From Treponema sp. (GTDB taxonomy: Bacteria; Spirochaetota; Spirochaetia; Treponematales; Treponemataceae), in the NCBI GenBank assembly GCA_024402655.1, contig JAKSTH010000002.1, forward strand, positions 795 to 64,794: 64,000 bases of DNA, in the 5' to 3' direction. Made by a program: the position numbers and the translations under genes. The notes below the pieces were generated by a model. The model had not been told where the DNA came from and did not search any database. It saw only the letters and a list, made by a program, of their open reading frames with translations. Numbering within the stretch: position 1 is the first letter of the stretch; each line of letters begins with the position of its first letter. Below are positions 24,698-28,135 of this stretch, in pieces.

Positions 24698-25213
24698 TTA
24701 GTTAGCAGCTTCTTTTGTTTCTGCTTTTTCAGCAGCTTTATCTTTAGCAGCTTTTTCTTCAGCTGTTTCCTGAGCTTTTACAACTACATGGATTTCAGCT
24801 GACTGAGCTTCATAAAGTTTAACTGTAGCTTTGTATGTACCAACAGTTTTGATAGTAATACCAGCAAGTTCGATTCTTTTTCTTTCGATATCGAAACCAA
24901 GTTTTGCAAGAGCGTCAGCAATTACGTGTGTTGTAACAGCACCGTAAAGTTTACCGTTTGCTCCAGCTGGCATTTCAACTTCGATTGAAGCAGCTTCAAG
25001 TTTTTCTTTAAGGCTAGCAGAATCTTTTCTTTTCTGTTCTTTTTTAGCTTCGATTTCAGCTTTTCTAGCTTCAAACATCATTACTGTAGCTTCATTGTAA
25101 GGTACAGCAAGGTTACGTGGAAGAAGGAAGTTACGAGCATAACCATTAGCTACGTTTTTTACATCGCCTTCTTCACCAAGTGATTTAACGTCTACGTTAA
25201 GAATTACTTTCAT
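24698..25213 (-). CDS. rplI: 50S ribosomal protein L9
   Basis: MKVIL, GYARNFLLP, GKLYGAVT. Confidence 0.97.
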   Translation of the reverse strand: MKVILNVDVKSLGEEGDVKNVANGYARNFLLPRNLAVPYNEATVMMFEARKAEIEAKKEQKRKDSASLKEKLEAASIEVEMPAGANGKLYGAVTTHVIADALAKLGFDIERKRIELAGITIKTVGTYKATVKLYEAQSAEIHVVVKAQETAEEKAAKDKAAEKAETKEAAN

Positions 25214-25288
25214 TTTTCAAGCTCCTCTTTATTTTTTATACGGTGCGTCACCAGGAGTTGGATCGTACCGTATTTGTTTATAATTTAA

Positions 25289-25624
25289 TTAGTCTGCTAC
25301 GTATGGAAGAAGACAAATTGCTCTTGCGCGTTTGATTGCTTTTGCAACTTCACGCTGGTGTTTTGCACATGTACCTGTAATACGACGTGGGAGGATTTTA
25401 CCTCTTTCTGTCATATAACGGCGCAAAGAATCAGCTTCTTTGTAGTCAATTTTTGCTTTGTTTGCACAGAAGCGACATACCTTCTTGCGGAAGTATGTTT
25501 TAGCCTTTGAACGGCCATCACGATCGTCTTCACGACCTTCGTTTTCTGCAGTAACTTCGTTCATTGAAGCTTCCTGAGACATCATATCCTGTTTTTCTTC
25601 CATTTCTTTCATTTCTTCAGACAT
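25289..25624 (-). CDS. rpsR: 30S ribosomal protein S18 (Zn-type, acidic N-terminal extension)
   Basis: [35 protein letters not shown]. Confidence 0.97.
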
Positions 25625-25639
25625 TTTTATCTCCTAATA

Positions 25640-26119
25640 TTAGAATGGGATATCTTCAGGGAAATCGCTACCAGTATCTCCATAAGAATCCTGGTAATTA
25701 TTTGAATACATATTCTGAGCAGGAGCACTGTTAATCTGCTGGAATCTTGGAGCACCCCCAGAAGGTTGACTTCCTTCAGCTTTTCCACCAAGTAACTGTA
25801 CATTATTAGCAACAATTGTTACTTTGCTCATTTTCTGACCGTCTTTTTCCCAACGATCCTGTTTCAAATAACCTTCTACACAAATCTGCTTACCTTTTAA
25901 TAAATAAGGTTTTAAATTTTCAGCAGTTTTTCCCCAAATTGTTATATCAAAATAGTTAACTTCATCAACCCACTGTTCACCATTTTTACGGCTTCTATTA
26001 ACAGCAATACTCACGTTTGCTCTAGCCTGTCCATTTGCAACATAACCAAAGCTTCTTTCATCTTCGCCAAGGTCTCTTGTAAGTCTACCAATAAGAACAA
26101 CATGATTTAAGTCTGTCAT
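25640..26119 (-). CDS. ssb: Single-stranded DNA-binding protein
   Basis: NHVVLIGRLTRD; C-terminal EDIPF. Confidence 0.97.
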   Translation of the reverse strand: MTDLNHVVLIGRLTRDLGEDERSFGYVANGQARANVSIAVNRSRKNGEQWVDEVNYFDITIWGKTAENLKPYLLKGKQICVEGYLKQDRWEKDGQKMSKVTIVANNVQLLGGKAEGSQPSGGAPRFQQINSAPAQNMYSNNYQDSYGDTGSDFPEDIPF

Positions 26120-26158
26120 TTAGCACTCCTAATGATTATATTTGGGTTTCAGTTAATC

Positions 26159-26446
26159 TTAGTTTTTTTCATCCAGTTTAACAAACTGATATTTTAAGAT
26201 GTTCTGGTTGATTTTGAATTCTTTTTCAACTTCAACAAGTTTTGCTGGGTTGATTTTCAAAGTTGTAAGAACGAAGTGTCCTTTTCTGTTTTTCTTGATT
26301 TCGTAAGTAAGATCGCGGTCACCGAATACTTTTTCAGCTTCGATTTCTGCACCGAATTTTGCAAGTGTGCTTTTTACTTCTTCAGCACCTTTCTTTGACT
26401 TTTCATCTTCGAGTGGATAAATTGTCATAAGTTCATACTTTTTCAT
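26159..26446 (-). CDS. rpsF: 30S ribosomal protein S6
   Basis: KKYELMTI, GDRDLTYEIKK, GHF; first gene of rpsF-ssb-rpsR-rplI. Confidence 0.95.
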   Translation of the reverse strand: MKKYELMTIYPLEDEKSKKGAEEVKSTLAKFGAEIEAEKVFGDRDLTYEIKKNRKGHFVLTTLKINPAKLVEVEKEFKINQNILKYQFVKLDEKN

Positions 26447-26560
26447 AAGTATCTCCTAATTTTTTGTTCCGGAAATATTTCCAGAATTAATCGGAGGACA
26501 GTAATACAATCTCATAATCAACGATTCTCGATTGTAAAATAAAAACCAGCGGCTTTTATT

Positions 26561-26608
26561 CCTCCTTATGGTCTACGGAAATTCCTGTTACAGAATCCCA
26601 AGGGGTGT
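26561..26608 (-). ncRNA. S6:S18 ribosomal protein leader (cis-regulatory RNA)
   Basis: CCCCUUG-[GGAUUCUG UAA CAGGAAUUU]-CCG-UAGACC-AU-AAGGAGG: P1 CCUU/AAGG and the conserved unpaired CCG, directly after the rpsF promoter. Confidence 0.75.
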
Positions 26609-26614
26609 CTTTAC

Positions 26615-26643
26615 AATATATCTGAAAATACAGTTAGGGTCAA
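26615..26643 (-). promoter_or_regulatory. Sigma70 promoter of the rpsF operon
   Basis: TTGACC-17-TATATT. Confidence 0.8.
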
Positions 26644-26695
26644 TATTCACCTTCAATATTGCCCGATTCTTTTTTATCATATATAATGATTTTAT

Positions 26696-28135
26696 ATGAA
26701 AATACGGCTTTTCAACAGAACTCTTACACTTATAATTTCCCTTTTTATTTTTTTGTATGCAACTCCTGTTTTTGCCAAAGAAACCTTAAAACTTCCACAG
26801 GATATTCAGGACAAAATTTCTGCCACTCCTGCTACAAAAGCAAGCTGGTACATCAGAAAAGCCAGCAGTTCGAAAGCGGGAAAAGTTGTTTATGGACCTT
26901 TTGAAACAAAAGAACAGGCTATTATTGTCTGGCAGTATTTTAATATTCCAGAAAGTAAAGCTCATTGTATTGCAAAAAATGACAGTTTTATTACAAGAAC
27001 TCCATCTGTTTTTTACAGAAAAGAAATGGATTTATTAAAAGTTCAGGTTGCCGAATATGGAATGCTTGCTGTTTTAGATAATCTTTTCCTTGGAATCTCT
27101 TATGAAGATTCTGCTACAGAAGTACCTTCAGTTAAAGAAACCCCAGTTGTTGAAAACAAAACCACAAAACCAGAGGTTGTTGAAAAAACACCAGAAATTG
27201 TTGAAAAAGCACCAGAAATTGTTGAAAAATCAGTTGAAATTGAAAAAAATCCTGAAGTTGTAGAAAAAAAATCAGAACCAATAATCAAAACAGCTGAAGA
27301 AGTTGAAAAAAATTCCGCTTCTGAAAACAAATCTTTGGTTAAAAATGAACAGTCAATCATTGCTAAAGAAGAAGTGAAAGAAGCTATAATTCCAGAAACT
27401 GTAATACAGGAAAACGAACCAATTGTAAGATACAAAAAAGAGTATTTACAGGATTATGCTCCAATAAAAACAGCACCACTTCCTTCTGACGAAGAAGAAA
27501 TTGTTGAATATAAAGTTGAAAATCCTGATGCTGCAGATGTTTCAGGCAGAACCCTTTTAATGAAAGCATGCGAAACGGGAAATGACTGGGAAATCACAAA
27601 TCTTATTAAATCTGGTGCCAATGTAAATCTAAAAGATAAAGACGGCTGGACTGCTCTTATGTATGCAGTAAGATACCAGCAGAATATTGCAGTTGTAAAA
27701 AGTCTTATAAATGCAGGCGCACAAATTAAAGCTAAAAACAATTATGGACTAACAGCCTTACTTTTAGCAGCAACCTATAATGACAATCCTGAAATTTTAA
27801 AACAGATTGTAAGCAAATATTCTATTTCAGAAAAAGAACTTTTACAGTCATTTATTCAGGTTTTAAGCAGTAATACAGGCAGTGAATATTCAACAGCTGC
27901 AAAAGTTCAGGTTTATATTGATCTGGGACTTCCTTTGAATGTTTTCTATCAGGGAAAAACACCTTTAATGTATGCTGCTAGTTTTACAAAATCTACTAAG
28001 ATAATTAAACTTCTTTTACAAAACGGTGCTCAAACAGCAATTCGTTCAACAGAAGGAAAAACAGCATTTGATTATGCTGCTGAAAATAAAGCTCTGCCAC
28101 ATGATGAATATTATTGGGCATTAAATCAAAAGTAA
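26696..28135 (+). CDS. Secreted ankyrin-repeat protein with SPOR-like N-terminal segment and repeat linker
   Basis: Signal peptide (VFA-K); YGPFETKEQA; GRTLLMKA, GWTALMYA, GLTALLLA, GKTPLMYA, GKTAFDYA. Confidence 0.85.
   Translation: MKIRLFNRTLTLIISLFIFLYATPVFAKETLKLPQDIQDKISATPATKASWYIRKASSSKAGKVVYGPFETKEQAIIVWQYFNIPESKAHCIAKNDSFITRTPSVFYRKEMDLLKVQVAEYGMLAVLDNLFLGISYEDSATEVPSVKETPVVENKTTKPEVVEKTPEIVEKAPEIVEKSVEIEKNPEVVEKKSEPIIKTAEEVEKNSASENKSLVKNEQSIIAKEEVKEAIIPETVIQENEPIVRYKKEYLQDYAPIKTAPLPSDEEEIVEYKVENPDAADVSGRTLLMKACETGNDWEITNLIKSGANVNLKDKDGWTALMYAVRYQQNIAVVKSLINAGAQIKAKNNYGLTALLLAATYNDNPEILKQIVSKYSISEKELLQSFIQVLSSNTGSEYSTAAKVQVYIDLGLPLNVFYQGKTPLMYAASFTKSTKIIKLLLQNGAQTAIRSTEGKTAFDYAAENKALPHDEYYWALNQK
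27170..27271 (+). repeat. 21-bp coding tandem repeat (PE[VI]VEKx), 3 near-perfect and 2 degenerate copies
   Basis: ccagaggttgttgaaaaaaca / ccagaaattgttgaaaaagca / ccagaaattgttgaaaaatca / gttgaaattgaaaaaaat / cctgaagttgtagaaaaaaaa. Confidence 0.85.

Follow-up and report, generated by a model that had tools for sequence, protein, structure and literature searches.

The rpsF operon and its leader in the window

We analysed the leader of the rpsF operon in a 64,000-nucleotide (nt) stretch of Treponema sp. DNA (assembly GCA_024402655.1, contig JAKSTH010000002.1, positions 795 to 64,794 of the forward strand), referred to below as the window. The leader carries, directly behind a promoter, an element resembling the site that binds the S6:S18 ribosomal protein complex in other rpsF leaders. 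In the window the Shine-Dalgarno sequence (SD) within this element is separated from the rpsF start codon by hairpins, a UCCUCC segment and a second SD. The features of the locus, all on the minus strand, are as follows.

26615-26643, minus strand: sigma-70-type promoter, with TTGACC at 26643-26638, a 17-nt spacer and TATATT at 26620-26615
26561-26605, minus strand: putative S6:S18 complex-binding motif, made up of helix P1, hairpin H2 and a 3′ bulge
26605-26599, minus strand: 5′ strand of P1, CCCCUUG
26598-26577, minus strand: hairpin H2, inside the S6:S18 motif
26576-26569, minus strand: 3′ bulge of the motif, with the conserved CCA at 26571-26569
26568-26561, minus strand: 3′ strand of P1, UAAGGAGG, the putative relic SD (SD1, acting as anti-anti-SD)
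26538-26560, minus strand: H1, a variable AU-rich hairpin AAUAAAAGCC-GCU-GGUUUUUAUU that begins directly 3′ of GGAGG
26505-26536, minus strand: P3 hairpin, with outer stem UACAAUC (26536-26530)/GAUUGUA (26511-26505) and apical part AAUC-GUU-GAUU (26526-26516)
26493-26498, minus strand: anti-SD UCCUCC, whose partner is GGAGGA of SD1 (6 base pairs) or, through CUCC, GGAG of SD2
26453-26496, minus strand: P4, the hairpin sequestering SD2, with CUCC (26496-26493) paired to GGAG (26456-26453) in the minimum free energy (MFE) fold
26492-26489 with 26461-26458, minus strand: flank of P4, GAUU paired to AAUU, with A26457 bulged
26486-26467, minus strand: H3, the apical hairpin of P4, UUCUGGAA/UUCCGGAA
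26444-26457, minus strand: working SD2 AGGAGA (26457-26452), spacer UACUU and rpsF ATG (26446-26444)
24698-26446, minus strand: operon of rpsF (26446-26159), ssb (26119-25640), rpsR (25624-25289) and rplI (25213-24698), with dnaB next, read from open reading frames (ORFs) and their translations

The TTGACC-17-TATATT pair is the top-ranked promoter-like site of the region in a promoter scan, with 10 of 12 consensus matches, and the predicted transcription start at about 26610-26607 lies 2-5 nt 5′ of the S6:S18 motif. AAGGAGG (26567-26561, minus strand) is followed by AATAAAAGCCGCTGG, and ATG, GTG and TTG are all absent from the next 15 nt; the rpsF ATG is 115 nt downstream. An earlier reading of the DNA (the original prediction) had placed the promoter, the AAGGAGG without a start codon, the 115-nt gap, the AGGAGA, the hairpins and the UCCUCC at these minus-strand coordinates, and all of them check out. 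The 181-nt leader is more stable than its shuffled versions (z = -3.1, with 0 of 200 shuffles as good). An origin of the insert from a repeat or mobile element was considered and rejected, the leader's only match in the genome being itself. A closing helix GACA/UGUC in the MFE fold of the window was also discarded; it is not kept in relatives, for example in the L011-L016 group.

An S6:S18 motif in two leader layouts

A protein-anchored search yielded 62 Treponema rpsF loci, or 63 sequences with the window, and a genus-wide search, in which S6 was found in 305 of 338 genomes, added 60 upstream regions, 53 of them new. Altogether 116 species were inspected. In 66 of them (24 + 42) the leader is canonical, with the same AAGGAG serving as the working SD 5-11 nt from the ATG; the 24 canonical loci of the first set, among them those of T. 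ruminis and T. zioleckii, read ACCCCUUG-hairpin-AAAUGUCCAUAAGGAGA 8-11 nt before the ATG. The other 50 (39 + 11, window included) have an extended leader, in which an insert of 51-164 nt lies between AAGGAGG and a second SD.

Judged feature by feature against the published motif definition, the 5′ element at 26605-26561 (minus strand) is a genuine member of the family of S6:S18-binding rpsF leaders, both by its homology to the canonical leaders and by four of the family's sequence and structure features. The operon context is that of the family: the element occupies the 5′ untranslated region (UTR) of an operon in which rpsF comes first and rpsR is included (rpsF, ssb, rpsR, rplI), with a promoter directly upstream. 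The bulge of the family is defined by a CCR that stands 2-3 nt ahead of the SD (PMC3854524), and the double C has been called “strikingly conserved” in a motif whose H2 is variable (PMC3895269). In the window an unpaired CCA at 26571-26569 is followed by UA and then AGGAGG; across the genus the bulge CC is invariant in 63 of 63 sequences and the third base is R, that is A or G. CUUG, CC, and the A, G and G of the SD are also invariant in the 63-sequence alignment. H2 sits in the basal helix with an asymmetric 3′ bulge and shows correlated substitutions, with 43 distinct hairpin sequences among the 63 and 2-6 standard pair types at levels 2-8, each sequence having been folded singly, which favours pairs. 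We judged H2 by single-sequence folding because RNAalifold, run on a MAFFT alignment of the 63 motifs in which H2 was misaligned, recovered only the invariant P1. P1 itself is nearly invariant across the 63 sequences, and covariation neither supports nor contradicts it. In its CC, the spacing from CCR to AAGGAG, its H2 and its distance from the promoter, the Treponema motif agrees with the published definition (PMC3854524, PMC3895269). The family also contains the ribosome-binding site (RBS) and adjoins the rpsF start codon; in this respect the window departs from it, with AAGGAGG 115 nt from the ATG.

The original prediction had identified the leader as S6:S18-binding and named an unpaired CCG as a mark of such leaders. 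The identification holds, and the triplet was the wrong one. The sole CCG of the motif (26578-26576) consists of the end of the H2 3′ strand and one bulge base; besides the window, L030 alone has it, and CCU or CUC stands at that place in the other species. CCG is not conserved and CCA at 26571-26569 is; the family assignment is unaffected. The Rfam model RF02893 (RpsF_leader) gives the E. coli leader 110 bits, and a search of the window with it brought no match even at E values up to 10. The model also fails on the short canonical Treponema leaders and places 1 of 14 control genomes above its cut-off, so it appears narrow and its silence on the window says little.

Searched with a strict pattern, 48 of 63 leaders show a -35/-10 pair with the -10 box ending 6-10 nt ahead of the P1 5′ strand, and most of the others have TATAGT. 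From this fixed distance the motif is placed at the very 5′ end of the mRNA in both the canonical and the extended form. Two leaders, L028 and L034, have an extra hairpin of about 20 nt (e.g. ACUGUUACAAACAGU) between the -10 box and the motif, which is not at the extreme 5′ end there.

By sequence comparison the extended leaders form one clade of rumen Treponema. In a tree of S6, SSB and S18, a branch supported at 98% in the Shimodaira-Hasegawa-like approximate likelihood ratio test has all 39 extended leaders of the first set on the same side. L035, with a 51-nt insert, and L025 are basal in this clade, and the short leaders L009 (T. bryantii XBD1002), L063 and L029 branch from within the full-length ones. 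Of two T. bryantii strains, both named isolates, NK4A124 (L007) has the full platform and XBD1002 a natural minimal one. Since the same layout recurs in 50 species of one clade, its presence in the window is not due to chance. The stretch from SD2 to the ATG, AGGAGAUACUUAUG, is nearly invariant within the clade, and canonical stretches from SD to ATG such as TAAGGAGATACTAATG resemble the AGGAGATACTTATG of the extended clade. This likeness suggests that the ancestral SD was duplicated, and a duplication with insertion between the copies would be the simplest history. Because the motif is conserved although it now lies 51-164 nt from the ATG, it is still under selection.

The triad, its hairpins and its predicted folds

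Extended leaders share three short segments: GGAGG after the CCR (SD1), exactly one CCUCC (the anti-SD), and GGAG 6-9 nt before the ATG (SD2). Aligned or checked by regular expression in 49 of the 50 extended leaders (39 of the first set and 10 new), this triad was present in 39 of 39 and 10 of 10, which shows that the CCUCC within the UCCUCC of the original prediction is conserved; L209, inspected by eye, has a single CCUCC and the same triad. The hairpins between the parts vary or are lost across the clade. Minimal leaders keep the triad only: in L035, GGAGGA-UUA-UCCUCC forms a direct hairpin, followed by a small hairpin and SD2, and L009 and L063 have H1, CCUCC and a direct SD2 hairpin. P3 and/or H3 have been lost in L009, L063 and L029. 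The two SD copies also differ in a consistent way. SD1 is GGAGG in all 50 extended leaders, and the base after GGAG in SD2 is A, U or C, never G; of 39 canonical SDs tallied, 35 have A and 1 has G as the fifth base, which is A or T in the first 24. The C that opens CCUCC never varies. Like the adjoining U in most leaders it pairs with SD1 only, its partner being the fifth G of SD1. From a haplotype table read by eye, UCCUCC or CCUCCU makes at least 6 contiguous pairs with AAGGAGGAA in 38 of 39 leaders.

The first hairpin of the insert, H1, has 37 distinct sequences in 38 leaders and is more stable than shuffles in 37 of 38 (median z = -5.2); its stems have 1-4 G-C pairs in 35 of 38 and a median stability of -9.5 kcal/mol. 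L10 and L20 leaders in Bacillus act by transcription attenuation, and the original prediction had offered termination at this U-rich hairpin as an alternative. S6:S18 binding would then favour termination at H1 (26560-26538), whose 3′ strand is U-rich and which is followed by UUUUAC in the window. We consider this very improbable. A terminator would have a G+C-rich stem and a U-tract conserved in relatives, and neither is present: H1 stems are AU-rich, at least 6 U in the next 8 nt occur in 0 of 38 leaders and at least 5 in 2 of 38, and no U run at all follows H1 in L005, L025, L026, L030 and L036. A terminator scan does not call H1, and no antiterminator partner is evident. Additionally, an RNA-library contig of a relative reaches from the motif across the insert into rpsF, a weak hint against termination given possible DNA carry-over; contigs of at least 90% identity cover rpsF and not the leader of this species, relatives' contigs alone bridge the leader, and such contigs cannot show transcript starts, ends or levels. 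In L012, L019 and L022, H1 is enlarged to a hairpin of about 76 nt (-30 to -32 kcal/mol), so the H1 position tolerates large insertions.

P3 is the most sequence-conserved element of the insert and is specific to the clade. In its stem 88.6% of cells are paired, against at most 44% with the partner slid, 7 of 11 pairs show compensatory changes, and 0 of 500 shuffles reach the score; within its loop C-GUY-G, CGU-G is invariant in 36 of 36 leaders. At the 20 other ATCGTYGAT sites in this genome we saw no comparable hairpin context, and a metagenome scan with a degenerate P3 pattern returned chance matches only and yielded no further variants of SD1 or the anti-SD. In about 14 of 36 leaders the P3 3′ strand is GAGGA, which makes a third SD-like word and might also pair with UCCUC, some 10 nt further downstream. 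In the window this strand has GAGA instead. One reading of P3 is a device with two inputs, in which P3 binds a second factor, perhaps L9 or SSB, that biases the competition among the relic SD, CCUCC and the true SD. We hold this to be distinctly unlikely; if true, the leader would be a protein-sensing analogue of tandem riboswitches, built by SD duplication. It is also conceivable, and in our view quite improbable, that the S6:S18 motif is a mere inheritance with no regulatory output, P4 damping translation or answering to a factor on P3. In its favour, P3 is the most sequence-conserved new element and has no role in the relay proposed below, and SD hairpins are common. A relic would decay, however; here 50 species retain the CC, both strands of P1 and the pairing of H2, while the neighbouring H1 and H3 turn over completely. 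The motif is kept even though the S6 proteins of the first 38 species are only 66-89% identical to that of the window, and the three minimal leaders from which P3 is absent, L009, L063 and L035, retain both motif and triad.

The P4 flanks are paired in 87% of cases against at most 56% with the partner slid, and they score 0.176 for covariation where shuffles give 0.087 (0 of 500). Beside the core the pair, counted on a start-anchored alignment, is GC in 15, UA in 7 and GU in 2 leaders, and P4 segments are more stable than shuffles in 30 of 31. Covariation therefore supports the helix between anti-SD and SD2 through its flanks, and the SD1:anti-SD core is invariant. Taken over the Treponema rpsF 5′ UTRs, whose covariation analysis the original prediction had called for, compensatory variation is seen in P3, P4 and H2. 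These patterns bear on whether AAGGAGG could still serve as the SD of a short upstream ORF whose translation controls rpsF, which we find scarcely credible. The window does have a 19-codon ORF (26457-26515, minus strand, ATG at 26515) whose UAG stop overlaps SD2, and L209 has a 36-codon ORF with a UAG likewise overlapping the rpsF SD. No start codon stands 4-15 nt from AAGGAGG in the window, however, and where an AUG follows in relatives it is 1-2 nt away; ORFs, starts and frame are not conserved, and the region evolves as covarying hairpins, not as codons. The ORF of L209 was created by a GC-rich extra insertion after a first SD2-like CAGGAGAC-AUG.

Folding models were run for successive transcript lengths. 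With the motif alone transcribed, P1 has a median probability of 0.71, and 0.55 just before CCUCC appears. Once CCUCC is transcribed, the SD1:CCUCC state beats the P1 state in 39 of 39 leaders by a median of 5.6 kcal/mol, and in transcripts ending before SD2 the probabilities are 0.92 for SD1:CCUCC and 0.01 for P1. For full-length leaders the models divide CCUCC between SD2 (mean 0.59) and SD1 (mean 0.35), which supports the claim of the original prediction that UCCUCC pairs with either the leader GGAGGA or the true SD. When P1 is forced shut to imitate bound protein, the median cost is 2.4 kcal/mol and SD2 becomes less likely to be open, about 150-fold in the median and more than 10-fold in 38 of 39 leaders. 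As modelled, the leader contains three segments with mutually exclusive and similarly stable pairings, the first of them inside a helix that the ligand would stabilise.

The S6:S18 motif could also be functional and coupled to rpsF by some other route, with P4 a static SD hairpin and the SD1:CCUCC pairing incidental. Possible routes would be three-dimensional proximity (e.g. coaxial P1/H1 and P3/P4), protection or exposure of the 5′ end to RNase, or Rho acting on the untranslated leader. This seems unlikely to us, if less so than the other rivals. Several points favour it: the motif is retained at the outermost 5′ end of the mRNA, of the two helices P4 has the better support and SD1:CCUCC is without covariation, the MFE fold of the window already has P1 and P4, and the native E. 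coli transcript level also drops on S6:S18 excess (PMC4647458). Against it, a contiguous, G/C-rich SD1:CCUCC helix of 6 base pairs is predicted over P1 in 39 of 39 leaders once CCUCC is made and would be hard to avoid physically, and P4 has no use for two conserved bases, the leading C of CCUCC and the fifth G of SD1. Minimal leaders moreover keep the triad without H1, P3 or H3, so no fixed three-dimensional scaffold is conserved.

A proposed relay and its relation to known systems

We consider it rather probable, on computation, that the rpsF leader is a protein-sensing relay of anti-anti-SD, anti-SD and SD. Its anatomy, conservation and energetics are those described above; what follows on protein binding, on kinetics and on the direction of the effect is inferred from published work (PMC3895269, PMC4647458). 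In the ancestor of the clade, the SD in the P1 3′ strand would have been duplicated and 50-165 nt inserted between the copies. The upstream copy, AAGGAGG (SD1), would have been kept in P1 and would no longer initiate, the downstream AGGAGA (SD2) would drive rpsF, and one CCUCC within the insert would be complementary to both. When S6:S18 is scarce, nascent CCUCC would invade the weak, interrupted P1 and pair with SD1, and SD2 would emerge mostly unpaired and be translated. When free S6:S18 is in excess, it would bind the nascent motif and lock P1, keeping SD1 occupied. CCUCC would then stay free until SD2 is made, and the CCUCC:SD2 pairing, that is P4, would occlude the RBS and block rpsF translation; the rest of the operon would probably follow by coupling. 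S6:S18 is known to protect bases of the basal helix (called H1 in that work), including the SD (PMC3895269), and to repress translation in E. coli, in a study whose authors expect that there are other platforms (PMC4647458). The original prediction had proposed that S6:S18 locks P1 and frees UCCUCC to occlude the real RBS. That proposal is upheld in part: the conserved motif and triad, the covariation of P4, the near-isoenergetic folds and the occlusion of SD2 under forced P1 speak for it, and the CCG it cited is not the protein-contact motif.

Several observations weigh against the relay. GGAGG and CCUCC never vary, and the SD1:CCUCC helix has no covariation support; the core cannot covary, because SD2 is bound to fit the ribosome, CCUCC is bound to fit SD2, and SD1 is a copy of SD2. 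Complementarity of SD1 to CCUCC also comes automatically, both being SD-related. The relay leaves the strong conservation of P3 unexplained, and the Rfam RpsF_leader model gives the window no score. A permutation test on P4 flank duplex energies alone was not significant (935 of 10000), the flanks being low-complexity A/U. The extended state arose once, and the species counts are not independent. In the models, the unconstrained MFE fold of the window is already the “off” fold with P1 plus P4, and SD2 is seldom fully open in any state, the median being 0.002 with no constraint applied. In the modelled “on” state the freed P1 5′ strand, whose CCCCUU is complementary to an SD, pairs weakly with SD2, and the median per-base unpaired probability of SD2 is 0.37.

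On the models, the extended leader is a new layout of the known S6:S18 feedback device. With the S6:S18 rpsF leader (Matelska 2013, PMC3854524; Fu 2014, PMC3895269; Babina 2015, PMC4647458; RF02893) it shares the operon context, the position at the 5′ end, a basal helix with the 3′ strand AAGGAG(G), a covarying hairpin, and a 3′ bulge with an invariant CC(R) 2-3 nt before that strand. It differs in that the motif excludes the RBS, the SD-like strand having no start codon and lying 115 nt (51-164 nt in the clade) from the ATG. Interposed are another SD, a dedicated CCUCC and as many as three additional hairpins. In Firmicutes an alternative pairing termed “H3” acts on the 5′ strand of the basal H1, whereas here a downstream anti-SD would take its place. 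A literature search found no paper that describes this uncoupled arrangement of the rpsF leader.

Translational riboswitch platforms, such as that of the E. coli thiM riboswitch for thiamine pyrophosphate, are built of anti-anti-SD, anti-SD and SD. As proposed, the extended leader resembles them in its three mutually complementary segments, with a ligand-stabilised helix that holds the anti-anti-SD and frees the anti-SD to occlude the SD, and in its two near-isoenergetic folds, between which the decision may be made during transcription. Unlike in those platforms, the proposed ligand is a ribosomal protein heterodimer and the anti-anti-SD a duplicated, retired SD. A remote binding site in the E. 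coli rplJ leader acts at a distance. L10(L12)4 exerts translational control in E. coli and attenuation in B. subtilis (PMC4538822). The L10(L12)4/rplJ leaders are similar in that one protein-binding RNA is coupled differently across lineages and the site can be more than 100 nt from the start codon. In Treponema, by contrast, the switch of platform occurs within one genus, the communicating element can be read in the sequence, and no terminator is involved.

Leaders of ribosomal protein operons are classic cases of protein-RNA feedback, and the rewiring of a conserved site to a new output is rarely visible. Here one genus shows the S6:S18 site in two versions: the textbook one, which occludes its own SD, and a derived one, where the old copy of a duplicated SD would be a decoy for CCUCC and the new copy would start translation. 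If confirmed, this would be a natural aptamer plus expression platform with a protein ligand, of the kind expected, and not documented, by the authors of the E. coli study (PMC4647458). The comparison of full and minimal leaders indicates which parts are dispensable.

The surroundings of the leader offer some further observations. Signature sequences of 16S rRNA (the 515F site and the 3′ end) were not found in this genome assembly, which is 86% complete and in 239 contigs. The S18 protein encoded by rpsR (25289-25624, minus strand) has 111 amino acids, with an N-terminal extension of about 40 amino acids, rich in Glu, Asp and Met, preceding the conserved KKVCRFC core. A divergent gene for a protein of 479 amino acids (26696-28135, plus strand) begins 53 nt upstream of the rpsF -35 box. 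In this protein an N-terminus resembling a signal peptide is combined with a PE/KE-rich repeat region and with ankyrin-like repeats. Plus-strand promoter-like sites (26659-26736) overlap the rpsF promoter region.

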